Shown here one piece after another: positions 7,580 through 43,596 of a stretch of DNA of 64,000 nt. The DNA lies in IMG/VR virus record IMGVR_UViG_3300038427_000078. One strand, given 5' to 3'. Under the pieces are notes generated by a model, which was given only the letters and a program-made list of their open reading frames with translations, was not told the origin of the DNA and searched no databases. Position 1 is the stretch's first letter, and each line of letters opens with the position of its first letter. The position numbers were made by a program, and so were the translations under genes. The DNA is from a virus.

Positions 7580-7921
7580 ATGAGTGATCAAGACCTAACA
7601 GAGCAGCAAGTAGTGGCTGCGGAGGCCGGTGTCGGAGACAGCATACAGGCCATCGCGGACCGCGCAGTCAAGGCCGTCGAGGTACTGGACTTGAGCGAGG
7701 GCGATGTTCTCGTAGTCAAGCTCGGCATCGATGACATGGGTGACGGACTCCCACCGTGGATTCCGGGACCAGCGGAGCTAGAGCAGGTGTCAGATGCCTT
7801 GACCGCGACAGTGCCAGAGGGCGTACGGGTGCTAGTTCACCACCTGGGAATCAACTTCCAGATCGTACGCGGCCTCGACACCAGTAACCCGGTCGTAGTC
7901 GAATCGCTGCCAACAGAGTAA
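7580..7921 (+). CDS. small protein paralogous to an internal portal-protein domain
   Basis: KLGIDDMGDGLPPWIPGPAELE...RVLVHHLG matches portal KLGIMDMGDGLPPWLPGPEELE...RVMVHHFG. Confidence 0.85.
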   Translation: MSDQDLTEQQVVAAEAGVGDSIQAIADRAVKAVEVLDLSEGDVLVVKLGIDDMGDGLPPWIPGPAELEQVSDALTATVPEGVRVLVHHLGINFQIVRGLDTSNPVVVESLPTE

Positions 7922-8774: not shown

Positions 8775-8786
8775 TAGCAGTACAAT

Positions 8787-8858: not shown

Positions 8859-8920
8859 CTTTGGCAGTAGAAGGCGAACAGCGCTTAGAGCGGGTTCGTG
8901 GGATCCCGCGCTGTCAACAT

Positions 8921-8991
8921 TGGGGGTTCGTTCAACGGCAGGACAGCGGGCCTTGAACCCGCGAATCGGGGTTCGAATCCCTGACCCCCAG
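8921..8991 (+). tRNA. tRNA-Gln(UUG)
   Basis: tgggggt/accccca; gcggg-cc-TTG-aa-cccgc. Confidence 0.92.
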
Positions 8992-9073
8992 CTAGCAAGG
9001 CAAGGAGCCGGTAGGCGTGTGCTACCGGACCAGAACGAGGCGTCACTGCACGCCTACCTTGCCGCAATCTTTC

Positions 9074-9157
9074 GCCTCTCTGGTTGGAATGGTAGACACA
9101 GCGGGCCTAAACCCCGCCGATCTTCGGATCGTCCGAGTTCGACTCTCGGGAGAGGCA
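9074..9157 (+). tRNA. tRNA-Leu(UAA)
   Basis: gcctctc/gagaggc; gcggg-cc-TAA-ac-cccgc; long variable arm. Confidence 0.9.
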
Positions 9158-9159
9158 TC

Positions 9160-9234
9160 GCGTCGGAAGCTCAAGTGCGAGCGCCGCCCATTTGGGGGCG
9201 GAGGTCGAGGGCGATTAGCTCCCCTCTCGGCGCA
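9160..9234 (+). ncRNA. tRNA-like cloverleaf with non-canonical loops
   Basis: gcgtcgg/tcggcgc, gctc/gagc, ccgcc/ggcgg, gaggg/ccctc stems; no TTCGA loop; 8-nt anticodon loop. Confidence 0.6.
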
Positions 9235-9238
9235 ACAT

Positions 9239-9312
9239 GGTGGTCGTCATCTAATGGACTAGGATTCGAGGTTGTGAACCTCGCCATGCGGGTTCGATTC
9301 CCGTCGATCACC
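9239..9312 (+). tRNA. tRNA-His(GUG) with encoded G-1
   Basis: g-gtggtcg/cgatcac-c; cgagg-tt-GTG-aa-cctcg. Confidence 0.92.
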
Positions 9313-9324
9313 CTGGCAGCACAA

Positions 9325-9399
9325 GCGCCACTAGCTCAGTCTGGTTAGAGCAACTGTCTTATCAACAGCGTGTCCGGGGTTCAAATCCTCGGTGGCGCA
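9325..9399 (+). tRNA. tRNA with UAU anticodon (Ile AUA reader)
   Basis: gcgccac/gtggcgc; ctgt-ct-TAT-ca-acag. Confidence 0.8.
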
Positions 9400-9405
9400 C
9401 TTCAT

Positions 9406-9479
9406 GGCCCGTGGGTCTTATGGCAAGGATTCCGCGTTCTCAGCGCGTGAGATGATGGGTTCGAATCCCATACGGGCTA
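9406..9479 (+). tRNA. tRNA-Glu(CUC)
   Basis: ggcccgt/acgggct; cgcg-tt-CTC-ag-cgcg. Confidence 0.88.
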
Positions 9480-9554
9480 CTCTGTAGGTACCATTCGAAT
9501 GGCTCTGCCTGCGGAACGCTTGACTTCATCGCACCCGTGCGATATGATGTCGCT

Positions 9555-10208
9555 ATGTCGAGAGCAAGAGACTGGACCCACCCAATCACCGGCGAGCTAC
9601 ACTGGTTCGACGTACACGGCATGGCTGGGGTCCGGGAACTCGAAGTTCTCGCAGACGCCGAAGACATCGACTTGGACGACCTGTTCGACGCGAACCTCTC
9701 TTCTAAGGAGGTTCTGTTCCGGCTCAACAAGCTCAGTGAGCTAATCCCGGAGGCGGGCCTCAACAAGCTCAAGAAACGTCAGACACAGGGCGAGCCTGAG
9801 ACTTGCCGCATCTGCCCGCTACTCGGTCGGGAGTGCGAAGGTCGAATGACCAAACATCACTTCGTGCCGCGTTGGATCATGTTGGAACTGGCAGACTACG
9901 AGGTCTATGCACCGCGTAGGCTCTGCACAGTCCCGGCGTGCGCCGGGAGCCACCGTTGGCTCCACATGCGGACCGAGGAGGGATCGAAATCCATCGCTCC
10001 TTACCTCGACAAGAATGAGAAGGCACTAGCGCACCATCTCATCGGGACACTCCGTCAGGAGCGCCCCAGGATCTACGCCCTCCTCGCGGGCGGGGACAAG
10101 AACAGCTACGAGTGGCAACTTGTTCAGGATTGGCGGCGAGGACTGTTTGATGTCAGGGGGGAAGGGAAAGATCCCTTCCCTCGCTGGCAGCTACGAAACT
10201 CTCTGTAG
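9555..10208 (+). CDS. HNH-like protein
   Basis: CRIC...TKHHFVPR...VPACAGSH; upstream TTGACT-N17-TATGAT promoter; stop codon inside tRNA-Arg. Confidence 0.65.
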   Translation: MSRARDWTHPITGELHWFDVHGMAGVRELEVLADAEDIDLDDLFDANLSSKEVLFRLNKLSELIPEAGLNKLKKRQTQGEPETCRICPLLGRECEGRMTKHHFVPRWIMLELADYEVYAPRRLCTVPACAGSHRWLHMRTEEGSKSIAPYLDKNEKALAHHLIGTLRQERPRIYALLAGGDKNSYEWQLVQDWRRGLFDVRGEGKDPFPRWQLRNSL

Positions 10209-10271
10209 CTCAGTGGATAGAGCGTCCGGTTGCGATCCGGGAGGTCGGCGGTTCGAGTCCGTCCAGGGAGG
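10199..10271 (+). tRNA. tRNA-Arg(GCG)
   Basis: ctctctg/cagggag; tccgg-tt-GCG-at-ccggg. Confidence 0.9.
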
Positions 10272-10299
10272 TACGTTAGAACCCTGCTAAGGTGTAGAT

Positions 10300-10479
10300 A
10301 TGCCTTACGCAGATAGAGAGAAACAGGCGGCGTATCAACGCGATTGGTACCGACGCCACAAAGAGCAACATATCAACCGTATTCGTAACGAACGTCGTAA
10401 GAGGCGTGAAGTGGTCAACGAATACAAGCTCTCAAGAGGGTGTAACCGATCGCGGGTTCGATTCCCGCATAGTGCTTAG
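10300..10479 (+). pseudogene. truncated HNH gene fused to an orphan tRNA T arm
   Basis: MPYADREKQAAYQRDWY...EYKLSRGC resembles the N-terminus of 8192-8524, then gcggg-ttcgatt-cccgc. Confidence 0.7.
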
Positions 10480-10486
10480 ATCAAAC

Positions 10487-11073
10487 TTCGTATCAGGCGG
10501 TTGCTGCGCTTGAAAGACAGCGTAGAGGAAGTTCGGGGCATGCTGGCAGGGGAAACCTTGTCATCGGCTCAACTACACCGAGTGACACCGGCCCAAAGGA
10601 GGTACGCCCTCGTTGGTGTTCCGGCGCATGCAACTCCAAGTAGAGAACCCTACGGCGAAAGCTATGGGCATATCGGGTTGGAGGCTTAGATGGATGATCG
10701 CCACCAGTTACGACTCAGAGGAGAGACATGAACTACTGTGAAGCGATGGCCTACGTCGCGGGGCTGTTGGAGGGCGAGGGATGCTTCGATTTCGTAGCTC
10801 CCGGCCATCCAAGGATCCGCATGGAGACAACAGATGAAGATGTGGCATACTGGCTTCAACACTTGGTTGAAGGTGGGACAATCACTAATCGTCAGGGCAA
10901 ACGCAGTAATCACAGCGATTCGTTTGTGTGGCAAACGAGCAGGGCTGATGTGGTCAAGAAGGTCTTGACGGCAATCTATCCTTGGACAAGTGCTCGCAGG
11001 CGAGTAAAGATTGATGAACTCATGTCTGCTCTCTGAGCCGTAGTTGGTACAGAACCCCGGCTATCGATACGAA
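10487..11073 (+). ncRNA. rnpB: RNase P RNA (reduced S-domain, no P18) with an ORF inserted in P19
   Basis: P1 ttcgtatc/gatacgaa; P2 ggcggtt/gatcgcc; P3; GAGGAAGTTCGGGGC at 10525; TAGATGGATG; ACAGAACCCCGGCTA at 11049; P4 forms 8 bp with a bulged U. Confidence 0.88.
10728..11036 (+). CDS. single-motif LAGLIDADG homing endonuclease inside the RNase P RNA
   Basis: YVAGLLEGEGCF motif; RBS gaggag. Confidence 0.9.
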   Translation: MNYCEAMAYVAGLLEGEGCFDFVAPGHPRIRMETTDEDVAYWLQHLVEGGTITNRQGKRSNHSDSFVWQTSRADVVKKVLTAIYPWTSARRRVKIDELMSAL

Positions 11074-11114
11074 TATGCCCCTCGGCTCTGTTCAGAACGG
11101 CTTGGGGGCACCAA

Positions 11115-11188
11115 GCCTGTGATGCAGAAATGGTGCTGCGCTCGCCTTGTAAGCGAGAATAGACTCGGTTCGATTCCGAGCATAGGCT
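11115..11188 (+). tRNA. tRNA-Thr(UGU)
   Basis: gcctgtg/cataggc; ctcgc-ct-TGT-aa-gcgag. Confidence 0.88.
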
Positions 11189-11352
11189 CTGACTGCGCTC
11201 TTGCAAGCACCGGGAACCGGCGTGCGGCAGAGCGGCGCGCTGGTCACCCGTGGCTAGTCCTCATTTGCTCAACGCACCCCGGATTAGGGATTGGGCAGGC
11301 TAGTCTAGTGTGAGTACCCACTGATCGCGATGAGCGTGAGGGGAAATCCAAT

Positions 11353-11423
11353 GCGGATGTGGCGTAATGGTAACGTATTTGCCTTCCAAGCAAAGGTTGC
11401 GGGTTCGACTCCCGTCTTCCGCT
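11353..11423 (+). tRNA. tRNA-Gly(UCC)
   Basis: gcggatg/cttccgc; tttgc-ct-TCC-aa-gcaaa. Confidence 0.93.
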
Positions 11424-11489
11424 TCAACCCACGACACAAAGGAGGTACCCCATGCGGTTAGGCACTGTCTAATCGAAAGGAGGTACTAA

Positions 11490-11660
11490 GTGAACGGCAA
11501 CCTCGCAGCCAAGGCTGCGAAGCTCATGCAGAAGAACGGGAACCGCGACAAAGGAGGCGGATCCCACAAGTACGGACGCAACCGCAACAAGTGCGCCCGC
11601 TACCGCGCCCGCGTGGGGAAGCCCCGTGGTCCTGGTGTCGATGGAAACAAGAAACACTAG
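11490..11660 (+). CDS. small very basic protein (56 aa)
   Basis: strong RBS gaaaggaggt plus GTG; MNGNLAAKAAKLMQKNGNRDKGGGSHKYGRNRNKCARYRARVGKPRGPGVDGNKKH. Confidence 0.7.
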   Translation: MNGNLAAKAAKLMQKNGNRDKGGGSHKYGRNRNKCARYRARVGKPRGPGVDGNKKH

Positions 11661-11697
11661 AGGGTGGCCGACCGGCCCACTGGAACGGTCGGATTAG

Positions 11698-11768
11698 TGC
11701 TGTGTAGCTCAACGGTAGAGCAACTGGCTCATAACCAGAAGACGGCGGTTCGACCCCGCTCGCAGCGA
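11698..11768 (+). tRNA. tRNA-Met(CAU)
   Basis: tgctgtg/cgcagcg; ctgg-ct-CAT-aa-ccag. Confidence 0.88.
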
Positions 11769-11818
11769 CTCATAACTCACAGGCTCCTTTCGAGCCATTT
11801 CCGGGCGCATAATGCTTG

Positions 11819-23407: not shown

Positions 23408-23451
23408 TAGGGAAGGCTCCAAGTGGGGTCAAATCAACGACGTAAGTATTG

Positions 23452-26172
23452 ATGGCTGACGAGAACCAACTACTACGGGCAGAGCTAGACAAACTCCGTA
23501 GACACGGGATGACTCTTCCGCGTCACAGCGGACGCGCTGCTCAGTCTTACGGCGAGGCAGTTCACACGAATCACGCGCTTCTACAGGCGGCAGGGCATGA
23601 CCTAGACCGCCTCGGAGTCAGGCTTGGGCGCAGCATCACGCAGGACAACTACGATTCGTCAGTCAAGAACATGCTGGGCGAGAACCAGGCCAAGATGCAG
23701 GCCATGCAGAGCAAACGCAGCATGAGCTATCGCAGCCAGGGAGCTAGCCCGCACCTGGGCGCAAGCCGTCGTGAGCACTACCGCATGTCAGCGGTTGACC
23801 ACCAATCCAACTTCGGTGGAAACCCCGGCGTCGGAACCTCGACAGGAGGCGATGCCTACAACGCCATCCCGCGTTTCTACGATCCGCTTGAGTATTGGGA
23901 CATCAGCGGCCTGCCGTGGAATGTTGCGGACGAAGGCCATCGTCACAAGCTCCACAAGTGGCTGCGCTTGTACTACGCCACCCACTACCTCGTCCCGATC
24001 CTGATCGACATCTTCACCCGCTTCCCGCTCGTCGGCATGGAGCTTGAGTGCAAGGATCCGAAGCTCAAAGAAGTGTACGAGTCGATCTTCCTCGACAACC
24101 TCAAATACGAAGACTTCCTCGTTGGCCTCGGTCGCGAGTATTGGGTCGTCGGAGAGGCGTTCCCTCTCGCGTCCTTTGATGAGGACTTGGGCGTGTGGGA
24201 GCATGAGGAGTTGATCAACCCCGAGGACATCGTGATCAACAACTTCCCGTTCCTCAACTCCAAGCAGTTGAAGATCGCTCCGCCCGACTACCTCAAGCGC
24301 ATCGCACAGACCAAGCTCCCGGCTCGCGAGTATTACCTCCTGCGCGAGAACTTCGAGGACTTGATCCCGTACTTGCTCAAGGGTGAACACATCCCGATCA
24401 GCCCGGTGATGATGCGCCACGTCGCCAACAAGATGAACAATTGGGACGACCACGGCACCCCGATTCTTCTACGCGGCATGCGAACCTTGCTCCATGAGGA
24501 AAAGCTCATGGCCTCGCAGGAAGCCATCGCTGAGCGTCTGTACTCGCCGTTGATCCTCGCCAAGCTAGGGATCATGGACATGGGCGACGGCCTCCCGCCG
24601 TGGCTCCCCGGCCCGGAAGAGCTTGAGTCCGTCCGTGACGACCTCGACATCGCGCTGTCATCTGACTTCCGCGTCATGGTCCACCACTTCGGCCTTGAGA
24701 TTTCCAACGTGTTCGGGCGCGAGCAGATGCCTCGCCTGGGCGACGACTTCGACCGCATCGAGCGCAGGCTCATGCAGGTGTTCGGCGTGAACCCGTCACT
24801 GCTCTCAGCGGGCAGCAACACACAGCCGTACGCCTCTAGCGCGCTACAAGCCGAGTTCATGAACCAGATCCTCCGCACGTTCCAGGGCATGCTCAAGGAG
24901 CACTACCGCGAGCGTGCTCTCGTCGTGGCTGAGGCGCAGGGCCACTACGACTACGAGACAAAGGGTGACACACGCATCCCGATTTGGGAAAAAGTCGCCA
25001 TCACCGACGAGGAGACAGGTGAGCGTCACATCGAGGAGGTACAGAAGCTCCTGGTCCCGGACCTCAAGTTCGCGACCTTCGACATGCGCGACCAGGCTAC
25101 CGAGCGTCAGTTCCTCATGGCCCTCCGTCAGATGGGCGTCCCGATCCCGAACGAGGATCTGCTCATCGGCATCGACTGGAACTACCGCGAAAAGGTCTTG
25201 CAGTACAACCGCGAGTTGAAGGAGCAGACCATCGCTCAGCAGCGCGCGAAGCTCGACACCTACATCGCTCTCGCCACGCAGGGACTCCCGATCCCGCTCG
25301 ACCTCAAGGCCGAGGTTGAGTCCGTGCTAGTCCACGGAGCAGGCGCAGGTGGGGGTATGCCCGAAGGCGGCGGTGGAGGCATGGCAGGAGCACAGCAGCA
25401 GAAACCAGGCGGCATGCCCGGATCAGTTGGTCCTGCCGGTGGCCCGCCTGAACTTGGACCTCCTGGCGGCGGTGGTGGAGGCATCAACATGCCGCCTCCG
25501 CCTCCTGGCCTTGGCTCAGGACCGGGCACCGCGCCTCCTGGCGGCGGAGCACCGGCAGCTAGCCCGATGGCTCCTGGTCCCGCAGGCACCGTCCCGCAGG
25601 TGAGCAACGAGCGTCGTCCTGGCCTGAAATACAACACGTCGAACCAGGGCCACCCGATCATCGGTGCTCGCGAGGGCAGCGACTTCGATCAGTTCATGGC
25701 CGACTACCCCGACCTGGGCCTCCCGTTCGTGGACTACGTGGCCGACAACACAGAGGACGAGCTAGACAAGATCGACCGTGGTACCCTGCTATCGTTGAGC
25801 AAGGCATGGCCGAAGAATGCAGCAGCATACCAGCACAAGGTTGCAGAGGAGGTCGCGGTATATCTCGCGAACACCCCGGATTCAGAGCCGGAGCCTGCTA
25901 AAGTAGAGCCACCAGTTGAGTTCACACTCAAGGCGAATCAGGAGCTACGGAAAGTAAAGGGTGAGCCAGATCGCATCATCGAGACACCTTCCAAGAAACG
26001 GATCAAGCACAAGGTCGCGACTGACAAGAAGTACACTGTCGTTGACCCGGTGGAAAAGCCGCTTCGTGTAACACCCGAGGAAGAAGCCAAGCTCCGCAAG
26101 GCGTATTTCAAGGCCAACAAGATACCACTACCAAAGGATGAGAATGAGTCAACCGAGCCAAAGTCCTCTTGA
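23452..26172 (+). CDS. portal protein with long Gly/Pro-rich C-terminal extension
   Basis: position near the terminase; HGTPILLR motif and VFGVNPSLL helix typical of portal folds. Confidence 0.75.
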   Translation: MADENQLLRAELDKLRRHGMTLPRHSGRAAQSYGEAVHTNHALLQAAGHDLDRLGVRLGRSITQDNYDSSVKNMLGENQAKMQAMQSKRSMSYRSQGASPHLGASRREHYRMSAVDHQSNFGGNPGVGTSTGGDAYNAIPRFYDPLEYWDISGLPWNVADEGHRHKLHKWLRLYYATHYLVPILIDIFTRFPLVGMELECKDPKLKEVYESIFLDNLKYEDFLVGLGREYWVVGEAFPLASFDEDLGVWEHEELINPEDIVINNFPFLNSKQLKIAPPDYLKRIAQTKLPAREYYLLRENFEDLIPYLLKGEHIPISPVMMRHVANKMNNWDDHGTPILLRGMRTLLHEEKLMASQEAIAERLYSPLILAKLGIMDMGDGLPPWLPGPEELESVRDDLDIALSSDFRVMVHHFGLEISNVFGREQMPRLGDDFDRIERRLMQVFGVNPSLLSAGSNTQPYASSALQAEFMNQILRTFQGMLKEHYRERALVVAEAQGHYDYETKGDTRIPIWEKVAITDEETGERHIEEVQKLLVPDLKFATFDMRDQATERQFLMALRQMGVPIPNEDLLIGIDWNYREKVLQYNRELKEQTIAQQRAKLDTYIALATQGLPIPLDLKAEVESVLVHGAGAGGGMPEGGGGGMAGAQQQKPGGMPGSVGPAGGPPELGPPGGGGGGINMPPPPPGLGSGPGTAPPGGGAPAASPMAPGPAGTVPQVSNERRPGLKYNTSNQGHPIIGAREGSDFDQFMADYPDLGLPFVDYVADNTEDELDKIDRGTLLSLSKAWPKNAAAYQHKVAEEVAVYLANTPDSEPEPAKVEPPVEFTLKANQELRKVKGEPDRIIETPSKKRIKHKVATDKKYTVVDPVEKPLRVTPEEEAKLRKAYFKANKIPLPKDENESTEPKSS

Positions 26173-27457
26173 CGACCCGAAAGTTCATAGGCTAGTCCGA
26201 GAGTACATCGCCGCAGGTAAGACCAACAGCAGCATCGTTTCATCACTCAGCACCCAAGGTGTTCTCACCACCAAGGACTCCATCCGGAGGTTCCGCAAGC
26301 GTAACGGCCTAGCCCCGCCGTCTAACTCCCCACTCCGACCGGGCGTGAAGGTAGAGAAGGGCACAGCAGAGGTCACGACTCCCCGCCAGGTCGGGGTCAA
26401 GCTCGATGACCCGGACACCATGCTTGAAGAACGTGGCCTTGATCCCGCCGAGTGGGACATCGAGGGCGCAGTCATCAACGAGTGGGATGGCCCGAGCCAA
26501 GAGGGTCCGGTCACGTACCACCAGGCGAAGCTCCGCCTCAAGCGCAACGTGGACTCGTTCATCTTCCCGGCCCGTAGCGATGGGTGGAAAGCGCCGCAGC
26601 GCAGTCTCCCGACAGAGGGATCACACCTTGTCGCCATCATAGGCGACCAGCAGGAGCCGTTCGCGGACGAGAACCTGCACTACCTACTCTGCGGCTGGCT
26701 CGAACAGAACCAGCCCGACGAGATTGTCAGCCTCGGTGACACTGTGGACTTTCCGGACATCAGCCGTCACAGGCTAGACCCGGAGAACGGAGCCACGGTC
26801 AACGAGTGTATCCAGACCGGCTACGACAACCTACGCGGCGTACGTCAGGCTGCCCCGAATGCGCGCATCCGCAAACTTGCAGGCAACCACGATGAGCGCA
26901 TGCGCAACATCCTGCTCGACAAGCCAGCAGTGCGGTCGCTCTACGGCGTCAAGCAGGCGGACACCCCGGACGAGGATGGCCCGCCCGTGCTCTCGATCCC
27001 TCACTTGCTTCGCTTGGACGAGTTGGGCATCGAGTACGTAGATCCTTCGGGTCCGTATGACATGGCGCAGATCAACCTCAGCGACCACTTGGCTGTGCGC
27101 CACGGCTGGATCGCCCGACAGGGATCAGGCGTGTCGGCTCTCGCTACGCTCGACTACCTCGGTTACTCCTGCATCGTGGGTCACACCCACCGTCAGTCAC
27201 TCATCTACAAAACTCGCCACGACATCGACGGCGGCACGACGACACTGACGGCTGCCGAGGCAGGCTGCCTCTGCAAAATCGATCAGAAGCCGTACAAGGG
27301 CAGGCAGTGGCCGAACTACACGGTCGCTCCCGACTGGCAACAGGGCTTCTCCACGGCGGTCGTTCACGCCGATGGCACGTTCAGGATCGAGAACGCAACC
27401 TACGTCAAGACGAAGGGCAAGGGCGTTCTTCTGTGGAGGGACGAACAGTACCGCTGA
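26144..27457 (+). CDS. calcineurin-like metallophosphoesterase with N-terminal HTH-like domain
   Basis: GD, LGDTVD, GNHD, RHG, GHTHR motifs. Confidence 0.85.
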   Translation: MSQPSQSPLDDPKVHRLVREYIAAGKTNSSIVSSLSTQGVLTTKDSIRRFRKRNGLAPPSNSPLRPGVKVEKGTAEVTTPRQVGVKLDDPDTMLEERGLDPAEWDIEGAVINEWDGPSQEGPVTYHQAKLRLKRNVDSFIFPARSDGWKAPQRSLPTEGSHLVAIIGDQQEPFADENLHYLLCGWLEQNQPDEIVSLGDTVDFPDISRHRLDPENGATVNECIQTGYDNLRGVRQAAPNARIRKLAGNHDERMRNILLDKPAVRSLYGVKQADTPDEDGPPVLSIPHLLRLDELGIEYVDPSGPYDMAQINLSDHLAVRHGWIARQGSGVSALATLDYLGYSCIVGHTHRQSLIYKTRHDIDGGTTTLTAAEAGCLCKIDQKPYKGRQWPNYTVAPDWQQGFSTAVVHADGTFRIENATYVKTKGKGVLLWRDEQYR

Positions 27458-28347: not shown

Positions 28348-28700
28348 ACCTCAACGAGTATCAGCGCAAGGCTGAGGAGACTGCCACATGGGGCACCTTC
28401 TCACAGGGCGACGGCAAGGGCGTAGGCGAGCCGGGAGGCATTCCTGGCGTGGTCTACTGCGCTCTCGGACTCACAGGCGAGGCCGGGGAGGTTGCGGACG
28501 ACTTGAAGAAGGCGTACCGCAACGATGGGATCATCACGTTCGAGCGGCGGGAGAAGATCCTTGAGGAGCTTGGCGACGTGCAGTGGTACCTCGCTCTGCT
28601 CACGACGGAACTTGGTGCTACACTAGACGACGTAGCGCAAAGGAACCTCACGAAGCTCGCGAAGCGGAAGAGGAAAAACGAACTCAAGGAGCACGCATGA
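28344..28700 (+). CDS. MazG-like nucleotide pyrophosphohydrolase
   Basis: LGLTGEAGEVAD...EELGDVQWY. Confidence 0.88.
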   Translation: MNLNEYQRKAEETATWGTFSQGDGKGVGEPGGIPGVVYCALGLTGEAGEVADDLKKAYRNDGIITFERREKILEELGDVQWYLALLTTELGATLDDVAQRNLTKLAKRKRKNELKEHA

Positions 28701-29257
28701 GCACCCAGGCGGAGCACGACCTATTCATGAGGTTCCCCGGAATGACGCGGGAGCAGATTGAGCGCCAGTTGAGCGAGAGGCTTGAGGACGACCTACGGGA
28801 CTTCCAGTTCCAAGTGCTACCCTCAGACGTGCCGCACCTACAGGCCGTAGCAGCCGATCCTAGACCAACCGTCTATCTCGCAGGACACATTTCAGCGGAC
28901 AACTACCGCAAGGTGGCAACAACCTACCTGGACGACTACGGATGGGAGGTTCTGGACCCGTTCGTGCGGGCCGACTTCCGTGACCGAGACAACCTCGACA
29001 TGGCTGCTCTCTCAGAGGAGATTGTCGAAGGCGACCTCAACGACATCAAACGGTCGCAGGCTGTCTTGGCCGACTGCACCATCGGCAGCCCCGGTACATC
29101 GATGGAGATTTGGTACGCGAACTCGATTGGGCGTCCAGTGTACGCCTTCGTGGAGCGTGGCAATCGCATCAGCCCATGGGTTCACTACGTGGCCCATGAG
29201 AAAGTGGAGGAGACTCTATCTGATGCGCTCGTAAGACTTGTAGGTGACTACCAGTGA
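28697..29257 (+). CDS. nucleoside 2-deoxyribosyltransferase-like protein
   Basis: VYLAG...LDP...DLNDI...SPGTSMEIWYA. Confidence 0.8.
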   Translation: MSTQAEHDLFMRFPGMTREQIERQLSERLEDDLRDFQFQVLPSDVPHLQAVAADPRPTVYLAGHISADNYRKVATTYLDDYGWEVLDPFVRADFRDRDNLDMAALSEEIVEGDLNDIKRSQAVLADCTIGSPGTSMEIWYANSIGRPVYAFVERGNRISPWVHYVAHEKVEETLSDALVRLVGDYQ

Positions 29258-35114: not shown

Positions 35115-35633
35115 ATGGATAGCTTATGTGAGTGTGGTTGTGGGAAAATGGCTCCTATCGCAACCAAGACAAACGTTTCAAGGGGTCATGTCAAAGGACA
35201 ACCTGTGCGATTCATTCGCGGACATTACAAAGGCGGTAGTCCAGGCCGTCGTGTGCCAATTTGGGATATTAGCGAAGATGGGCGTATGGCGACGGGGGAA
35301 TGTAAGCGGCATGGCATTGGAAAGTTCGTTCTTCGAGGCGATGGGACAATGCGTTATCGTTGCCAATCTTGCGCTAGCATGCACGCTCGCAATTGGAATA
35401 AACGACGTAAGGAAACGCTTGTCAAGGAGCATGGGGGCAAGTGTGTTATTTGCGGATACGATAGATACCTGGGCGCTTTTCATTTCCACCATCGGGATCG
35501 TACGACAAAGGAGTTTCATGTGAATCAACATGGACCTGGAATTGAGGCAGCGCGGGTAGAGGCAAAGAAGTGTATTCTGCTCTGTGGCAACTGTCATTCC
35601 GAGGTTGAGGGTGGGTTCAGTGAGCTTCCGTAA
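35115..35633 (+). CDS. HNH homing endonuclease
   Basis: CECGCG N-terminus; FHFHH...KKCILLCGNCH; lower GC than flanks. Confidence 0.88.
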   Translation: MDSLCECGCGKMAPIATKTNVSRGHVKGQPVRFIRGHYKGGSPGRRVPIWDISEDGRMATGECKRHGIGKFVLRGDGTMRYRCQSCASMHARNWNKRRKETLVKEHGGKCVICGYDRYLGAFHFHHRDRTTKEFHVNQHGPGIEAARVEAKKCILLCGNCHSEVEGGFSELP

Positions 35634-35640
35634 GGACTCT

Positions 35641-37746
35641 ATGACCGTGCAGCCGCTCGCCAGTGTCAAGGAGGCTGCTCGCGCACCAGACTACGCCGAA
35701 TACGGTGGCTGGTGGGGCTTCAACGACAAGCAGTTCCGGGTCTACGGCGGCTATCTCAACGGACAGCTTGTCGGCTTCGGCGTGGTCAAGCTCGACAGCG
35801 ACGTGCCGAGAGTCATCGTGGTTCACTCAGCGGTTCGTGAGGACGCCATGAACGAGGCCATGCTCCGTCGCATCGCGCTCCACTTCCCGAGCCTCAAAGC
35901 CGGTGCTGACAGCCCGGAGGAGGAACGCCTCCTATCCCGAGTGGGACTGCTTGAGGCACAGCCGGGACTATGGCTCAAGATCGCTGGTCAGGAAGGCAAG
36001 GACATCTTGCAAGCGCCGATCCCGTTCGTCTACGATGTCGAAAAAGACGAAATCGAAGTCGGGCACCCCGGCCAGAAAACAGCGGACGTGCAAGGCGAGT
36101 TCACGCCGGGTGGTATAGTGGAGGGCTACTATGAACCTGGCGGCAAGATGGTCATCACGACCAAAACATCGATCCCCTACACGAACTACCACATGGTACA
36201 ATTGTGGTATTGGAGTCATCCAACGTTGGAGGTAACAGGAGTGGACTATGAAAACACAGGACAGAAGAAGGTCAAGCTCGCATCGGAGGATGTCGGGCAG
36301 TACATCCGCACACTCGCGTCTGCTGACCCTGCGGCGTGGAAGGCGTATCAAGCTCTTGGTGCTGCTGGCGGTCACGTATATGTGGTGGGCGGTGCGGTCC
36401 GCGATGCCCTCCTACAACGTCAACCCAAGGACATTGACTTGCTGGTTGGTGGTCTACCTAGCGAGGAGGTTCACCGAATCCTTACGTCACTCCCTGGACA
36501 GGTTGACATGCGCGGTTCGAGGTTCGGCATCTACGTCTACCACACGCACGGCAAAGAGGTAGAGATTGCGCTTCCACGCAAAGACGACTACGAGGGTGGC
36601 AAACGCGCTGATGTGAAAATCAGCGCCGACCCGAACCTACCTATCGAGAAGGATCTGGAACGCCGTGACTTCACCGCGAACAGCATGGCCGTGGACCTCA
36701 ACAGCGGTCAACTCATTGACCCATTCGACGGCTCAGGCGACATCAGCCGTGGCGTGCTTCGCACCACTCACCCGAAGTCATTCAAGGAGGATCCGACGAG
36801 GCTTATGCGTGCGCTCACCGCTACCTCGCGCTTCGGCCTAGAGCCGGATGAGAAGACGAGGGCCGAGATGGGTGAATCCGCGCACATGCTCGACCATGAG
36901 TCACCGGACGCCCTACGGGTCCAGCTAGAGAAACTGATGGTGAGCGCAAACCCGGCACGGGCGGTACGACTCGCGCAGGAAACTGGCGTGCTTCACCACC
37001 TATTCCCGGAGCTTGCGGAGAACTACGACTTCGACCAGCACAATCCACACCACAACTACTCCCTTGGCGACCACTCACTACAGGTGCTCGACAACATGGC
37101 GCGAATCACACCTAACCCTGACATGCGCCTCGCTGCGTTGCTTCACGACATCGGCAAGCCGGGGTCGCAGTGGTTCGACGGTCACGGTGTGGCTCACTAC
37201 TACCCACGTCCGCAGCACCTAGACGCAGAACTCGCTCCTGGGGGTAAGTGGCAGCGTGCCGAGAATTGGGGCGCGGACCACGCAGCCTTGGGCGCGAACA
37301 TGGCCGAGGCCCGCCTGCGTCAGACCTTCAACTACCCGGTGGAGAACATGCGCCGCATTCACTCACTCATCAACGCCCACATGTTCGGCAACTTCGAGAA
37401 ACCGAAGGGGGCACGCAAGTTCCTACAGCAGAACGGCCAGCACGCCGACGACCTACTCACACTGCGTGAATGCGATGGGGAGGGCAAGGGCACCGAGAGC
37501 ACAGACAATGTGGAACAGATGCGCCAACTCATCGAAAACGAGCGACAGCAGGGTGCTCCCACCACTCAGTCCGCGCTAGCTGTCAACGGTAACGACATTA
37601 TGGGCCTTGGCATAAAGGCAGGCCCGCAGATCGGCACCATTCTGCGCCAGCTAACAGATGACGTGGTAGACGATCCGAAACTCAATGACCGCGAAGCTCT
37701 CCTACAGCGCGCTCAGGAATACGCCGATGCTCAGCCAGGTAGCTAA
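35641..37746 (+). CDS. cca: CCA-adding tRNA nucleotidyltransferase with HD domain and N-terminal extension
   Basis: VGGAVRD, DIDL, RRDFTANSMA, EDPTRLMRA, LLHDIGKP. Confidence 0.88.
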   Translation: MTVQPLASVKEAARAPDYAEYGGWWGFNDKQFRVYGGYLNGQLVGFGVVKLDSDVPRVIVVHSAVREDAMNEAMLRRIALHFPSLKAGADSPEEERLLSRVGLLEAQPGLWLKIAGQEGKDILQAPIPFVYDVEKDEIEVGHPGQKTADVQGEFTPGGIVEGYYEPGGKMVITTKTSIPYTNYHMVQLWYWSHPTLEVTGVDYENTGQKKVKLASEDVGQYIRTLASADPAAWKAYQALGAAGGHVYVVGGAVRDALLQRQPKDIDLLVGGLPSEEVHRILTSLPGQVDMRGSRFGIYVYHTHGKEVEIALPRKDDYEGGKRADVKISADPNLPIEKDLERRDFTANSMAVDLNSGQLIDPFDGSGDISRGVLRTTHPKSFKEDPTRLMRALTATSRFGLEPDEKTRAEMGESAHMLDHESPDALRVQLEKLMVSANPARAVRLAQETGVLHHLFPELAENYDFDQHNPHHNYSLGDHSLQVLDNMARITPNPDMRLAALLHDIGKPGSQWFDGHGVAHYYPRPQHLDAELAPGGKWQRAENWGADHAALGANMAEARLRQTFNYPVENMRRIHSLINAHMFGNFEKPKGARKFLQQNGQHADDLLTLRECDGEGKGTESTDNVEQMRQLIENERQQGAPTTQSALAVNGNDIMGLGIKAGPQIGTILRQLTDDVVDDPKLNDREALLQRAQEYADAQPGS

Positions 37747-39811
37747 CGTCCTAGACCCGATCCACGACACGCTTGATCCCCGCGTGTGGGAGAAAGCTGG
37801 TTCAGGGCACCCGGTGCTCAAGCCGAAGCACGCCCACTGGATCAAGAAGTCGATCTACTCGACGCTGGATCAGGCAGGTTACACCAACCCGGAGCAGTGG
37901 CTCACACTCTGTTTCACTGGCTCGCTCACCACTTACCAGTACAGCGACGACAGTGACGCGGATGTCAGCCTGTTCGTAGACAGTGAGAAGTTCCCCGAGT
38001 GGAGCAGGGCTGAGATGATCGGCCTCATGGTGTCACAGCTTGACGAGCACTACATGCCGGGTACCCCGTACCCTCTACAGGCGTTCGTGATCCCCGAGGG
38101 TGTCAAGCCGCATGACATCTACCGACCAGGGCTGCGCAGCGCATACGACATTGACAACAACAAATGGATCGTGGCTCCCGAGAAGCAGCGTATCCACGAC
38201 ATCGAGTCAGAAGAGAATGGCTTCTACTCCTGGGCGTTGCAGATGGCTGACAAGATGGAGCGACTGCTGCGCTATGAGCCGAAAAAGGCGGTGGACTTCT
38301 GGCACGCCATTCACCGTCGTCGCAGGCGTGACATGCAGGCGGGGAAGGGTGACACCGCCGAGAGCAACATCGTCTACAAGTTCCTCGCACAGCGTGGCCT
38401 CCTGCCACAGATCGCACAGGAGAGCGGTGAGTACATCGCCTCTACCAAGACCTCTGCTCATCGCCTGGAATACGACCGGGCTATTCACCCGGAAGGCAAG
38501 GGTCTGCTATTCACAGACGGCTCAATGTGGACGTGGCCGACCAAGGACTTGAAGCCTCCGCACATGCGCTACAACATGGAGGCAAAATCGCAGGGACTAC
38601 AGACAGTACCAGGCAGCGCCTTCGCGATCAAAGAGGGCAAAGTGTGGCAGTTCGGCGCAGGGCGCAGCCTCAACCCACAGCAGCAAGCTCAGATTCAGAG
38701 CATCGACCCTCGCCTCGAAATGGCACCTTCGCGTCGGCAGGAAGAACTCAACACCGCAGAGCCAGGGTTCGGCCACGGGCAGAACGTGCTCGACATTCTC
38801 GAACGCCAGGATAAGCAGGCGGGCTACGGCGGGCATGCACGCGATCTAAGGCCAAGGGATGAACTTGAAATCCTGCTCCGCGAATACCGCGAAATGGCAC
38901 AGATGAGTAACAAGCACGCCCTGCCTCTGAAAATGGCGATCAAATCCCTGGAAGAAGAGCTAGGCGAGCACGACCGCGTGCTCAGCACATGGCAGGTTGT
39001 GGCGATGCCGTACGACGAGCAGTTCATCAACGAACTCAAACCCGAACACACCATGGAGAAGGGTGACGATAGTGGTGAGTTCTTGGTGCCGACACTTCAC
39101 GCCATACACCCCACTCAGGGCGAGGTAGGCCACCTACAGTACACTACGGGTGATGAAGAAAACCCGTTCCCTCCGGGTGTGCTGATGCTACGCACGCATG
39201 AGCCATACAAGCGCAAAGGGATCGCTACCTGGATGATGGACAAGCTACAGGAGCACTACCCTGACCAGCCTATCGACATGGGTGGGTATTCAGACTCCGG
39301 GCGAGAATGGGCGCGGGCCTACCAGGGTGACGAAGGTTACAATCCTGCCACGTTTGTAAAGGATCTCAAGCCACTTACTGAATACGAGTTCTATCACATG
39401 GGGTCTACCTCACTGCACGAACTGGTGGAGCGCATCTTTACCGGCGTCATGGAAGGTGGTATTACCCTCAACCTCGCAGGCGAAGAGCCGACAGCCCGTT
39501 ACGGGTTTGCGCCCGACAAGAGTAGCGAGGAACGCATCTCGTTGCAGACGGTGACACCGCACGACATCGAAGCGTACATCCAGCACCACCTGCGCGAGCT
39601 ATCTCAGCCTGGGAAATACGTGGGCGCTTGGATAGCAGAGGGCGATGTGTGGCTGGATGTGACGGAAAGCCATGAAGATTTGAATGAGGCATACAAGCGT
39701 GCTTGGAATGGAAATCAGCGCGCTCTCTACGATAGTGTAGCCGAAGAAGATATTCCAGTGAGGGATTCGGGCATTCCTCCGATAGAACCGGAATCCAATG
39801 AACCACGGTGA
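37727..39811 (+). CDS. multidomain protein: Pol-beta-type nucleotidyltransferase plus GNAT-like domain
   Basis: TGSLTTYQYSDDSDADV; PYKRKGIATWMM acetyl-CoA-binding-like motif. Confidence 0.7.
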   Translation: MLSQVANVLDPIHDTLDPRVWEKAGSGHPVLKPKHAHWIKKSIYSTLDQAGYTNPEQWLTLCFTGSLTTYQYSDDSDADVSLFVDSEKFPEWSRAEMIGLMVSQLDEHYMPGTPYPLQAFVIPEGVKPHDIYRPGLRSAYDIDNNKWIVAPEKQRIHDIESEENGFYSWALQMADKMERLLRYEPKKAVDFWHAIHRRRRRDMQAGKGDTAESNIVYKFLAQRGLLPQIAQESGEYIASTKTSAHRLEYDRAIHPEGKGLLFTDGSMWTWPTKDLKPPHMRYNMEAKSQGLQTVPGSAFAIKEGKVWQFGAGRSLNPQQQAQIQSIDPRLEMAPSRRQEELNTAEPGFGHGQNVLDILERQDKQAGYGGHARDLRPRDELEILLREYREMAQMSNKHALPLKMAIKSLEEELGEHDRVLSTWQVVAMPYDEQFINELKPEHTMEKGDDSGEFLVPTLHAIHPTQGEVGHLQYTTGDEENPFPPGVLMLRTHEPYKRKGIATWMMDKLQEHYPDQPIDMGGYSDSGREWARAYQGDEGYNPATFVKDLKPLTEYEFYHMGSTSLHELVERIFTGVMEGGITLNLAGEEPTARYGFAPDKSSEERISLQTVTPHDIEAYIQHHLRELSQPGKYVGAWIAEGDVWLDVTESHEDLNEAYKRAWNGNQRALYDSVAEEDIPVRDSGIPPIEPESNEPR

Positions 39812-40343
39812 ATACAGAACCTACGTAAGTGGATGTCGTTGCGACGAGTGTCGAGAGGCAAATCGTGTGTATAAGTGTGATTGGCAACGTAAAAATCGTA
39901 CCAAGGCGAGGGCGTCCTCTAAGCGTTGGGAAACCAACCATCGCAAAAGAAGGAACGAAGTCAAAAAACGCTATTGTGACAAAAACCGTGAACGCATCCG
40001 TGAGCAGAATCTAAAGGCTAAACGAAAATGGGCAACTAACAACCCGGAGAAGGCTCGCGCTGACAATCATAGAAGCAGCAATACTCGTCGTGCTCGCGAA
40101 CACAATGCGTTTATTGAGCAGGTAGAACGGGATACGGTCTACGAGATGCACGGCGGCATGTGCGGAATCTGCGAGCAGTTCATCGACAAGAACGCACCCG
40201 AAGCGCTAGAACGCATAGCGAAAGGCGAAGCGTGGTTTCACGTAGACCATGTGATACCCTTGAGCAAGGAAGGTTTGCACTGCTACGCCAATGTGCAGCC
40301 TGCTCATCCTTCATGTAATAGACGGAAGAGCAACAAATGCTAG
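39798..40343 (+). CDS. HNH homing endonuclease
   Basis: CGIC...HVDHVIPLSKEGLH..NVQPAHPSCN. Confidence 0.9.
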   Translation: MNHGEYRTYVSGCRCDECREANRVYKCDWQRKNRTKARASSKRWETNHRKRRNEVKKRYCDKNRERIREQNLKAKRKWATNNPEKARADNHRSSNTRRAREHNAFIEQVERDTVYEMHGGMCGICEQFIDKNAPEALERIAKGEAWFHVDHVIPLSKEGLHCYANVQPAHPSCNRRKSNKC

Positions 40344-41551
40344 ATTGGAAGATCACTATGACCCAGGATGATGAGGTCTGGTTCGAGGACTACGTTCGCT
40401 CGTACATCGGGTCGGACTTGCCTCACCTGCCTCCGCACACCACCAAGGTAGGTGCGACCACGGCTACCTGGGTCGAACCTCAGCCGGGGTTCTACACGCT
40501 TCAACTGGTGGGTGGCTCCCACGACGATCAGTGGTTTGCTGAACAGTACGTGAGCGGCATGCTTGAGGAGCACGGCCTAGAGCGCCAGATGTTCACTTTC
40601 ACCCATGAACACAAGACCGCCGACTACTCAGACGTTGAGTCCAAGGCGGTTCGGTTGATCCAGTCGGGCAAAGTTCACGTTCAGGCCAATCACGCCGACG
40701 AGATTCAGGGCATCGTGGAAGGCGACCACGGCACTTACGAGGTCAACATCAAGAAGGACGCCAACCCGGAATCGGAATCCATCTCGCGGTGGAACTGCGA
40801 ATGCGATTGGGGTCAGTTCGCGTGGGGACGCACCCGTCAGTGGAAGCGCTTCGAGGGTCGCCCGTGCGCGCACGTACTCGCGCTCTATTGGGCGGCTCGA
40901 TCAGTGCCGCAGGAGATGGAACAGATACCGGAAGGGTGGACCGAACAGCCAGCTACCGCCGAAGGCACGCCAGAAGGCCCAGCGGCCCAGCGCATCCAGC
41001 AGGGTGAATACCCCGGCGCAGGAGGGATGGTCCCGCCAGGGGCGTCACCGATGCTCATGCAGCCTCCACAGGTACCGCAGGCCGTGGGCCAGGGTATGCC
41101 TCCGGGCCAAGCTCCCGAACCGAGTCCCGCACTGCCACCGTACCCGGCCAATCCTGAGAACATGCCCGCCATGAACCCGGTATCAGTGCCCGGTCAGAAG
41201 CCGCAGTCGCCCCTCAACCCGATCCAGAACGCCGGGGGTACCTTCTCGCACGTAGCGGCGGAGAAGTCCCCGTTCAATGAAGGCGACATGGTGCAACTCA
41301 AGCAGGACGACATCGGCCAATGGGTCGGCCTCAACGGAGGCGATCCCAAGGCGGTACCAGCCAACAGCATCGGCCAGGTCGAAGGCACCCACCCGAGCAC
41401 GGGGTTGGTCGAAGTCTACTACCCCGGTCCTGCCGCCAACAATGGGCCGAACGAACCGCACGGGGTCAAGGCGTGGCACTGGCCCGCCGACCTCATCGCT
41501 CGCCCGGACATCCCACCTTACGGATCAGCCACCACGACACGAAGGACTTGA
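40337..41551 (+). CDS. SWIM Zn-finger, Pro-rich protein
   Basis: CECDW...RPCAHVLA. Confidence 0.65.
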   Translation: MLDWKITMTQDDEVWFEDYVRSYIGSDLPHLPPHTTKVGATTATWVEPQPGFYTLQLVGGSHDDQWFAEQYVSGMLEEHGLERQMFTFTHEHKTADYSDVESKAVRLIQSGKVHVQANHADEIQGIVEGDHGTYEVNIKKDANPESESISRWNCECDWGQFAWGRTRQWKRFEGRPCAHVLALYWAARSVPQEMEQIPEGWTEQPATAEGTPEGPAAQRIQQGEYPGAGGMVPPGASPMLMQPPQVPQAVGQGMPPGQAPEPSPALPPYPANPENMPAMNPVSVPGQKPQSPLNPIQNAGGTFSHVAAEKSPFNEGDMVQLKQDDIGQWVGLNGGDPKAVPANSIGQVEGTHPSTGLVEVYYPGPAANNGPNEPHGVKAWHWPADLIARPDIPPYGSATTTRRT

Positions 41552-41582
41552 CAACCTGCACAGAGCTTGATACTCTGTGCGG

Positions 41583-41972
41583 ATGCTTGTGAAGCTCATC
41601 GCCACAGTCGCGTTCGCGCCGTTCTTCCACCACGCGCCCAAACCGCGTCGTCATCACCACCGGAGTCAGCCCTCTTTCGAGGTAGCCGGGGCGACATCGA
41701 CGTTCGGCTACCCCGCCGAAGGCCCAGGACAGACCGCAGATGGAGGGACCACCGAGCGGCCCTGCATCGCCATCCGCGACGACCGTACTCTAGGCCACTG
41801 GTTCAAGGTCACGGTCGATGGGCGCACTGCCCGCCTGCTTCACTGCGATTGGGGACCGGCTAGCTGGACAGGACGGGCCATTGACATCACGGGCGAAGGC
41901 GTACGCGCGTTGGGGTTCAGCCAAGCGGGATACCCGACCGGCGCAGTAGGAGTTGCGAGGGAGTTGGGATAA
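41583..41972 (+). CDS. secreted RlpA/DPBB-like lytic transglycosylase-fold protein
   Basis: signal-like N-terminus; DWGP...RAIDIT; own TTGACA promoter. Confidence 0.6.
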   Translation: MLVKLIATVAFAPFFHHAPKPRRHHHRSQPSFEVAGATSTFGYPAEGPGQTADGGTTERPCIAIRDDRTLGHWFKVTVDGRTARLLHCDWGPASWTGRAIDITGEGVRALGFSQAGYPTGAVGVARELG

Positions 41973-42547
41973 TGCGTTCTGGCTTTCGAGGCGTTACGTG
42001 GAGTAAGACTCACGGCAAGTGGCTCGCGAGCGTCAAAGTCGATGGCAAGCACGTCTACTTGGGTGTGTACGAGGACGCAGCCGACGCCGGGATAGCCGCC
42101 AGTGACTTCCGTCTACAGATGGCGATCCCGCGCAAGGTCATTCAGCGTCGGGCGAACGCGGATCGTTCACGCGGAGTCAAACGGCACAAGGAAAAGCTCG
42201 ACCCCGTGGTAGCGCGAGCTATCGCTCTCAAGGGCCACGCCGTGCGCAAACAGTCGGGATGCCTTCACCCCGACAACAAGAGCGGCATCACGGGTATCAG
42301 TTGGAACAGCAAGCGTAACCGATGGTTCGTCCAGGTGCGCGACAAGGATGGTGTCAAGAAACGGCTTGGCTCGTACAAGGACTTGGACGAGGCGAAGCGC
42401 ATGGCAGAAGCGTTCTACGAGACAGGCGAAGATCCTCGCTTGACATCTGCGGGCATGAGACAGGGTTGGCTCCCAAGGACTCCTGCGAACACGTCTGCGG
42501 CGATTGCGAGGGCACGCGCAACGAGCTTGACGGCCACCCATGCCTGA
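41972..42547 (+). CDS. double AP2-domain DNA-binding protein (HEG-derived)
   Basis: SGFRGVTW...YLGVY and SGITGISW...RLGSY. Confidence 0.75.
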   Translation: MRSGFRGVTWSKTHGKWLASVKVDGKHVYLGVYEDAADAGIAASDFRLQMAIPRKVIQRRANADRSRGVKRHKEKLDPVVARAIALKGHAVRKQSGCLHPDNKSGITGISWNSKRNRWFVQVRDKDGVKKRLGSYKDLDEAKRMAEAFYETGEDPRLTSAGMRQGWLPRTPANTSAAIARARATSLTATHA

Positions 42548-42608: not shown

Positions 42609-42845
42609 ATGGAGGATCGACGCTATGAGTTCTCGCCCACAGGTGGTCGGGCCGATGCTATCGCCAAGGTCATCGCGACCATCGAGGCGGCGAGCCATCT
42701 GAACCTCCCATTCACGGTCACGACCGAGAAGGGCGAACACTTCCGCAACGGCGGCAACGTCAACAAGGCCACGATCCTCAGCTATCACGTCGTGGTCGGC
42801 AACAAGATGTCGCCTGAGCTTGACAAGCACGGGAACCCCTGCTAA
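42609..42845 (+). CDS. hypothetical protein
   Basis: TGATG coupling. Confidence 0.55.
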   Translation: MEDRRYEFSPTGGRADAIAKVIATIEAASHLNLPFTVTTEKGEHFRNGGNVNKATILSYHVVVGNKMSPELDKHGNPC

Positions 42846-42854
42846 GGTACAGCT

Positions 42855-43337
42855 ATGACCGCTATCCAAGACATCAAAACCACCCTTGAGAACCGTCTAG
42901 AGCTTCTAGACTATGCCTGCGAACAGGAGAGGCCCGGTACCGCTGCGTTCGATGAACTGTGCGGTCGCCACGAAGAGAGCAAGACCATGTTGGAGCTAGT
43001 CAACTACTTCGCCACGACTCGCGAGGACGTTGAAGATGAGGCTCCCGCCTACTGCGACTGCGACGAGTGCGCCTGCGAGTACGACGAGGACGACTTGGAC
43101 ATCAGTCTCACCATCGACGGCTCCGAGGTAGTCTCCCTGGACGAGTTCCAAGAGATTCGTGCCTACAACTACGAGCTTGCCATTCGCACTCTTGTCCAGC
43201 AGGAGGCGAAGCTGTCAACCTATTGGGCGCTCAAAGAGCTAGGTCTACCGATCCCGTACGACCTACGCAACGAGTGCTGGCCGCTCGACCCGGACAATCC
43301 TGACAACCAGCCTCGCGGCACGTCCTGGCAGCCCTAG
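42855..43337 (+). CDS. acidic protein carrying a copy of a portal C-terminal segment
   Basis: YNYELAIRTLVQQEAKLSTYWALKELGLPIPYDL vs portal YNRELKEQTIAQQRAKLDTYIALATQGLPIPLDL. Confidence 0.8.
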   Translation: MTAIQDIKTTLENRLELLDYACEQERPGTAAFDELCGRHEESKTMLELVNYFATTREDVEDEAPAYCDCDECACEYDEDDLDISLTIDGSEVVSLDEFQEIRAYNYELAIRTLVQQEAKLSTYWALKELGLPIPYDLRNECWPLDPDNPDNQPRGTSWQP

Positions 43338-43338
43338 A

Positions 43339-43596
43339 GTGTATCTAGTAGAAGTCGCCCCTCAACGGTGGACCGTCCGCGAGCAGAAGCCCAAAGCGGG
43401 CAAACACTCTGCGCACACCAAGATCCTTGGGACCATCGAGTTCCATGAGTTCTGGACGTACAAGAACGGTGTGAGGGTGCAATCTGGCTTCTGGATCGCA
43501 CGGCCACCTGACCACGGCTGGAAGGAAACCGGCTGGAAGAAGGTCGAGAGCAAGGACGCTGCTCTCAAGTTCCTCAAGGACCGAGCGAAGAAGTGA
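43339..43596 (+). CDS. hypothetical protein
   Basis: GC3-biased ORF. Confidence 0.55.
   Translation: MYLVEVAPQRWTVREQKPKAGKHSAHTKILGTIEFHEFWTYKNGVRVQSGFWIARPPDHGWKETGWKKVESKDAALKFLKDRAKK

Follow-up and report, generated by a model that had tools for sequence, protein, structure and literature searches.

ORF160, a small accessory phage gene with a homologous copy of a portal-protein segment

ORF160 and its match to the portal protein

We analyzed a 64,000-nucleotide stretch of phage DNA (the window), part of a 172.6-kb metagenome contig, for which no close cultured relative was found in DNA and protein searches of the INPHARED phage collection. ORF160 (42855..43337, + strand, stop included) encodes a protein of 160 aa and lies 16.7 kb downstream of the portal gene (23452..26172, + strand). 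The auxiliary genes between the portal and ORF160 include a 439-aa metallophosphoesterase (26138-27457), a nucleoside 2-deoxyribosyltransferase-like protein (28583-29257) and a 720-aa tRNA nucleotidyltransferase (35584-37746). Upstream of ORF160, the region from 39798 to 42547 holds genes of mobile-element type that encode an HNH protein (181 aa), a SWIM zinc-finger protein (404 aa) and an AP2-domain protein (191 aa), the last of which matches HNH endonuclease PHROGs.

The initial annotation had reported that the C-terminal part of ORF160 resembles a segment of the portal at 22 of 37 residues, and we found these figures to be exact: an ungapped alignment of ORF160 residues 104-140 (43164-43274) with portal residues 586-622 (25204-25314) has 22/37 identities, which BLASTP widens to 22/42 (E 4e-10). 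Significance in profile-type searches had been proposed as a check on this likeness, and the match was indeed significant in two further searches. A tblastn search with the portal as query, run on the whole window in six frames, recovered the ORF160 segment (E 3.6e-7), and a phmmer search of ORF160 against 1.84 billion representative proteins reached the intein-bearing portal of a relative at the same place (E 1.4e-4). Judged by these statistics, the similarity between ORF160 and the portal is one of true homology, not of chance. ORF160 is not itself a member of the portal family, as only 42 aa align and the full portal core (~500 aa by the family profile) is absent; compared to a portal, it is without clip, stem and wing, ~90% of the protein, and cannot form a channel.

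All other searches with ORF160 gave little. There were no matches to Pfam or PHROGs, none at the DNA or protein level in INPHARED, and no solved relative by sequence or profile searches of the PDB, while an ESM Atlas search returned only generic helical look-alikes. Foldseek against the PDB yielded nothing informative for either the ORF160 model or the portal model, and tblastn detected no second copy of the module in the 64-kb window. ORF160 itself is present, identical in both protein and DNA sequence, on 15 metagenome contigs of peat type, which are clonal (0-1 mismatch over up to 6.5 kb). A full-length homologue, P0002 on contig L011, is 48% identical.

To describe the anatomy of ORF160, we used an AlphaFold2 model built with the family alignment (mean pLDDT 82), in which three parts can be distinguished. 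Residues 1-61 (42855..43037, + strand) are predicted to form a helical hairpin, with helices at 3-24 and 30-61 (pLDDT 92-98). Residues 62-94 (43038..43136, + strand) form a linker with a C-x-C-x2-C-x-C cluster and lower model confidence (pLDDT 58-75); its description as acidic and Cys-rich held up, with 16 D/E, 1 K/R and 4 Cys in residues 56-94. Residues 95-141 (43137..43277, + strand) make up the portal-crown module, homologous to portal residues 581-622, and are modeled at pLDDT 92-96 as a long helix (95-128) that leads through a GLPIP turn into a short helix (135-141). Conservation between ORF160 and P0002 follows the same division, with 32/61 identities in the hairpin and 24/47 in the module, the latter without gaps, compared to only 5/27 in the linker, which also contains indels.

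The portal gene lies within a 907-aa ORF (23449-26172) that matches phrog_2833 over residues 129-628 (E 6e-149); its ATG at 23452 stands behind a TAA-N4-TG-ATG signal, and the protein is 40% identical to Mycobacterium cluster C-type portals. After its core (residues ~129-628) come a Gly/Pro-rich linker and a C-terminal extension. In the portal alignment, the segment that corresponds to the module (residues 581-622; 25189..25314, + strand) is the final conserved block of the core, just before the Gly/Pro-rich linker, and comprises the last long helix, followed by the GLPIP turn and the beginning of a short helix. In the portal model, a helix at 579-611, a turn and a helix at 617-628 are predicted at pLDDT ~70-80, and this long helix-turn-short helix arrangement agrees with that of the module in the ORF160 model. 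Moreover, a structure search independent of Foldseek placed several portals in its top rows, with alignments to the crown of 80alpha (Z 5.7) and SPP1 gp6 (Z 5.5). These alignments offer weak but consistent support for a position of the source segment in the C-terminal crown of the portal. The module is homologous to the last conserved helix-turn-helix of the co-resident portal (phrog_2833), with the invariant residues kept, and its closest known counterpart would be the portal crown, as in SPP1 gp6 and 80alpha. Since the portal model is poor overall (mean pLDDT 49.6), the assignment to the crown is tentative, and the conserved face may be either a protein contact or a DNA-facing lining of the channel.

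We also noted several other features of these portals. The portal segment has a sole match in INPHARED, to the portal of Rhodococcus phage E3 (E 0.02). The part of the window from 25336 to 26172 (portal residues ~630-907) encodes a ~90-aa Gly/Pro-rich linker and a ~190-aa C-terminal extension; this region is kept in the uncultured clade and lies outside the matches to portals of cultured phages. Some related portals carry inteins, one of which (P0006) has a LAGLIDADG domain, with long frames also in L030, L032 and L034. An echo of the module near the portal C terminus (residues 869-897; 26066-26139; E 0.36) was rejected as an insertion unique to this portal, as it is absent from 15/15 aligned relatives.

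The hairpin family and the start signals

The gene that follows ORF160, p85 (43339..43596, + strand), abuts it closely, with the TAG stop of ORF160 separated by one base from a GTG start, and the two genes are probably co-transcribed. Homologues of p85 lie directly downstream of P0002 on L011 as well as directly downstream of the N-domain genes in G003, G004 and G005. The products of these positional homologues are related to the ORF160 hairpin (hhalign, 89.7% probability, E 1.8e-6). Thus, ORF160 has both marks by which we recognize the p85-linked N-domain family, hairpin homology and a gene directly upstream of a p85 homologue. A profile search with the hairpin collected 15 proteins at E <= 0.01 (ORF160 and P0014-P0027), and two proteins, P0003 (69 aa) and P0004 (55 aa), consist of the hairpin only. 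This clade-wide family, with at least 15 members, always lies next to the p85 gene.

In this family, the portal-like module is confined to ORF160 and P0002, the only known fusions of hairpin and module, while the other members carry C-terminal motifs of their own. The usual ones are WG-x-QQRGDWP-x-STF and EPG-x2-RHDPGRC, in place of which ORF160 and P0002 have the Cys-rich linker and the module. By sequence, then, ORF160 is a fusion of two small-protein families specific to a clade of uncultured actinobacterial myophages. A search with the hairpin alignment for related loci found none in viral contigs, and a single 18-residue metagenome match to that alignment was set aside as probably spurious. 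We also discarded a pairing by MAFFT of the QQRGDWP motif with the module as an artefact, because QQRGDWP is conserved in its own right across the N-domain family.

A predicted sigma-A-type promoter (42820..42848, + strand) precedes ORF160, with a -35 element TTGACA (42820-42825), a 17-nt spacer and a -10 element TAAGGT (42843-42848), and overlaps the end of the preceding 78-aa gene, its TAA stop included. The ATG of ORF160, at 42855, stands only 6 nt past the -10 element, which implies a leaderless mRNA. A generic sigma-70 scan did not list this site, the -10 of which matches TATAAT at 3/6 positions only. We found, however, 11 instances in the window of the actinobacterial-style pattern TTGACA-N16-18-TANNNT (at 732, 6813, 41548, 42820, 50506, 51102, 53723, 55174, 57850, 59095 and 61482), compared to 0.57 expected; all 11 sites are on the + strand, and no shuffle of the sequence reached this number. 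At 9/11 of the sites an ATG follows 6-8 nt after the -10 element, and the starts behind them include those of rIIA (51137), rIIB (53758), a 129-aa gene (41583) and ORF160, which shows the whole pattern: TTGACA, a spacer of 16-18 nt, TANNNT and an ATG 6-8 nt on, on the coding strand. By these counts, the sites are a coherent class of predicted host-type leaderless promoters, and the earlier assignment to ORF160 of a separate leaderless promoter of host-polymerase type is well supported by sequence statistics. The alternative that TAAGGT serves as a Shine-Dalgarno sequence is disfavored, since the full pattern recurs at a fixed spacing from the ATG.

P0002 has a corresponding signal, TTGACA-N17-TAAGAT-N6-ATG, although its upstream gene is unrelated to that of ORF160. 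Thus, the promoter and gene travel as one cassette. On L011, two unrelated ORFs also take the place of the genes that separate the AP2 gene from the ORF160 homologue. In these respects ORF160 is like the phage accessory cassettes known as morons: it is short, has its own host-type promoter set in the end of the preceding gene, is patchy among relatives, and moves together with its promoter into a different upstream context on L011. The cargo differs, as ORF160 carries a piece of a structural protein that the phage itself encodes, not a function in metabolism or one directed at the host.

Another start signal, TAA-N4-YG-ATG, also recurs, with 13 sites compared to 1.8 expected, including those at 4339, 11005, 11810, 13510, 19558, 23443, 29808, 32012, 43732 and 44229 on the + strand. 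It marks the starts of the portal gene, a tail-collar gene (44238), the gene at 43741 and others, and may represent a different, perhaps late, promoter or start class. Since ORF160 belongs with rIIA and rIIB in one class and the portal in the other, the two proteins may be made at different times. These two classes (rIIA, rIIB and ORF160 in one; portal and collar in the other) give a first regulatory map for this uncultured actinophage group.

Portal fragments as small genes and the selection on them

We defined a portal-crown minigene family as small non-portal proteins with the pattern T-x2-QQ-x-AK-x3-Y-x2-L-x4-LPxP-x-DL-x2-E. ORF160 contains this module, as do P0002, P0005 and P0007-P0013, of which the last seven (56-97 aa) came from a search of the module profile against small proteins among 5.8 billion sequences; P0005 (63 aa) is a further protein with a stand-alone module. 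The stand-alone module proteins are complete ORFs with unrelated ends, including a CxxC stub in P0007. Several of their genes follow the portal closely: P0012 lies directly after the portal and phosphoesterase genes and P0008 ~300 nt beyond them, and P0007, in G009, occupies the same portal-proximal slot. Thus, the module is tied to the portal genomically, although ORF160 itself lies outside the slot just downstream of the portal and metallophosphoesterase. The stand-alone minigenes in the portal-phosphoesterase gene string are without a sigma-A promoter of their own, and in G006 the start of the minigene overlaps the upstream stop.

The window contains a second portal fragment, as the initial annotation had claimed: a 113-aa minigene (7580..7921, + strand) carries a copy of portal residues 368-423 at 7706-7873 (54% identity; tblastn E 1e-13), which does not overlap the segment found in ORF160. 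This fragment-1 minigene ends 3 nt before a tRNA-Ile gene, and the surrounding region (656-11769) forms a tRNA island, which holds 28 tRNA genes as well as one for tmRNA. From the two fragments a deliberate portal-mimic system had been proposed in place of a chance duplication, with co-occurrence of the fragments across phages as a check and with insignificant similarity, or absence of the gene from relatives, as evidence that would speak against it. We examined these points in relatives from IMG/VR, all uncultured, with portals 54-73% identical to that of the window and with six records at least 90% complete. No ORF160-type gene was found in any of these six (G001-G004, G006 and G008) or in four partial records. 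Small genes with fragment 1 occur only in two relatives, G003, where the 122-aa frame is intact, and G006, with 77 aa; neither has fragment 2, and in G009, a 35%-complete record, we found a fragment-2 minigene but no copy of fragment 1. Among the phages examined, only that of the window has both. Furthermore, G006 and G009 have nearly identical portal segments, and a single slot that follows their portal and phosphoesterase genes, with the same flanking genes, holds fragment 1 in G006 (L120:1489-1722, - strand) and fragment 2 in G009 (L095:1465-1746, - strand). Since the fragments occur separately, they are individually recurrent accessory genes, not an obligate pair. Thus, the likeness itself stands as a true homology under selection at the protein level, but the idea of two pieces that form one deliberate system is not supported, as the fragments recur separately and ORF160 is missing from six relatives that are at least 90% complete.

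The residues kept in the module are almost exactly those that portals cannot change. In the module alignment, 15/41 columns are invariant across 19 portals. ORF160 keeps 14/15 of these residues, compared to 8/26 of the variable ones (Fisher p 1e-4). Similarly, P0002, P0005, P0008-P0011 and P0013 keep 12-14/15, while P0007 keeps 10 and P0012 only 8. In all, nine of the ten independent small copies keep 12-14/15, with retention of 87-93% at the portal-invariant sites compared to 27-50% elsewhere. The retained residues (T-x2-QQ-x2-K, Y/L at helical spacing, and LP-x-P-x-DL-x2-E) map to one helix face and the turn. This distribution indicates that the small copies are under the same selective constraint as the portals. 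With its clear invariant positions, the module of ~45 residues would also be a compact probe for partners of the crown.

The copy in ORF160 is not recent. At the DNA level the two window copies are 56% identical, and 48% at third codon positions, and 8/22 of the residues shared by ORF160 and the portal are specified by different codons. This divergence indicates that the copy is old and has been held at the protein level. We also compared the module to portals of other phages. The ORF160 module matches the window portal at 22/41 positions and other portals at 16-23, and P0008 shares 23 residues with its own portal compared to 26 with others. The module thus resembles the portal of its own phage no more than it does those of others, which gives no sign of co-evolution.

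Possible roles of portal fragments in trans

ORF160 is a real accessory gene, and we considered how its product might use the module. Unrelated small proteins that are constrained at the positions invariant in portals are explained simply only if they engage the same partner as the portal segment, and the most economical candidate for that partner is the portal crown. The reading we prefer, though only tentatively and at somewhat less than an even chance, is that ORF160 acts in trans as a mimic of a contact surface of the portal crown. The module would present that surface in trans and would bind its normal partner in the ring, for which the crown of portal subunits is the most plausible candidate, and ORF160 would thereby either be tethered to the assembly of the crown or compete in that process. 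The role of cargo or effector would then fall to the hairpin and the Cys cluster, and probably also to p85. The phage might benefit through control of its own assembly or through interference with a co-infecting relative. Several observations weaken this reading. The gene is dispensable, given its absence from the six relatives at least 90% complete; its start-signal class differs from that of the portal; and the module does not co-vary with the resident portal. A complex prediction with ORF160 residues 88-150 and two copies of portal residues 449-634 gave a score of 0.13, which counts neither for nor against binding.

Competition of this kind has counterparts. Vaccinia K3L is a mimic of eIF2-alpha, and a short internal segment of a phage head protein can suffice for recognition in trans, as is the idea for the ORF160 module: the Gol peptide of the T4 major head protein is sensed by the Lit protease. 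Gol differs in that it lies inside the full-length protein and triggers defense, whereas the module is encoded as separate genes. The phage anti-defense protein DSAD1 counteracts the tail-tube sensor DSR2 (PMC11087589). K3L and DSAD1 share with our reading of ORF160 the concept of a small viral protein that competes at a surface normally engaging a viral or cellular protein, but ORF160 shares sequence with the portal, while DSAD1 is not known to be homologous to the tube protein. The literature searched contains no account of minigenes made from portal fragments. The principle behind them, capture of a domain and mimicry within an accessory cassette, is known; a family of selected structural-protein fragments appears new.

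Phage structural proteins are the main patterns read by bacterial immunity, and they must also assemble correctly. The portal fragments kept as small genes would represent a new use by phages of their own structural surfaces, by which they could regulate portal assembly, sabotage it, or blind the sensors that detect portals. The last of these uses underlies an alternative that we consider unlikely but worth weighing: ORF160 might be an immune decoy, whose module binds a host sensor that reads the immutable crown segment but does not activate it, so that the real portal goes unnoticed. The sensor Avs4 detects portal proteins. SpbK is listed among portal-sensing defenses in one report (PMC11984713), and RAZR is another example (PMC13017515), so that ORF160, through its portal homology, does resemble a phage protein that is sensed by defenses. 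The retained residues are exactly those that the portal cannot change, the distribution is patchy and accessory, and the exchange of fragment 1 for fragment 2 in the slot of G006 and G009 is as expected of an arms-race locus. The host-type leaderless promoter of ORF160 is also of the kind found at rIIA and rIIB, which the portal lacks. Against this, the stand-alone minigenes that sit in the portal-phosphoesterase string without their own promoter imply that many of these proteins would be made together with the trigger, not before it. In addition, no known sensor reads a crown helix; for RAZR, the escape mutations of T7 gp8 fall at residues 192-227 (PMC13017515). The literature searched also shows no demonstrated homologous trigger-mimic decoy in phages. 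For both types of fragment taken together, we regard as speculative, and on balance doubtful, the broader proposal that portal-fragment minigenes (crown module and fragment 1) are homologous trigger mimics, a new counter-defense class that would display immutable portal epitopes to portal-sensing immunity, or to the assembly of a rival phage, and block it competitively, with ORF160 as an early-expressed version fused to an effector.

A helix-turn captured from the crown could instead have been exapted as a structural or self-association element, which oligomerizes or stabilizes the small proteins with no interaction with the portal; we think this improbable as well. Crown helices pack side by side in portal rings, and the conserved face of the module could equally be a homotypic interface among copies of the small proteins. 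The absence of co-variation with the resident portal is compatible with this possibility, as are the unrelated fusion partners of the module, which include the hairpin in ORF160 and P0002, the CxxC stub in P0007, or none. However, the proteins of 56-66 aa, with little beyond the module, would then have no function past self-association, and the repeated siting of such genes beside the portal gene would be a coincidence.

We also considered that the turn (Y-x2-LK-x2-GLPIP-x-DL) might be a shared docking peptide by which the portal, ORF160 and another head protein bind one partner. A family of ~300-aa proteins in five relatives has a similar motif near the N terminus, at E-values of 1e-5 to 1e-7 per genome (G001, L105:1363-2295, + strand; G002, L044:730-1707, - strand; G003, L113:7427-8305, - strand; G004, L104:823-1710, - strand; G006, L096:802-1659, - strand). 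These proteins begin with a basic N-terminal tail, after which comes the Y-x2-LK-x2-GLPIP-like motif, and in G003 the gene lies in the head module, just past the major head protein and a protease-containing gene. The match spans only the turn and the end of the helix, however, and the T/QQ/K face is missing in most members, the E-values are modest, no homologue of the family was seen in the 64-kb window, and the partner is hypothetical, so that we rate this explanation as quite improbable.

Finally, mosaicism is pronounced in actinophage genomes, mobile cassettes with HNH, AP2 and other genes abound in the window, and related portals carry inteins, so that illegitimate recombination might have pasted a functionless piece of the portal into an accessory gene as a neutral relic; this is very improbable, since the retained residues lie on one helix face and the turn in a pattern of selection, with the markedly non-uniform retention at portal-invariant sites described above, intact reading frames, and a module that has remained ungapped between ORF160 and P0002 despite the decay of the linker beside it.
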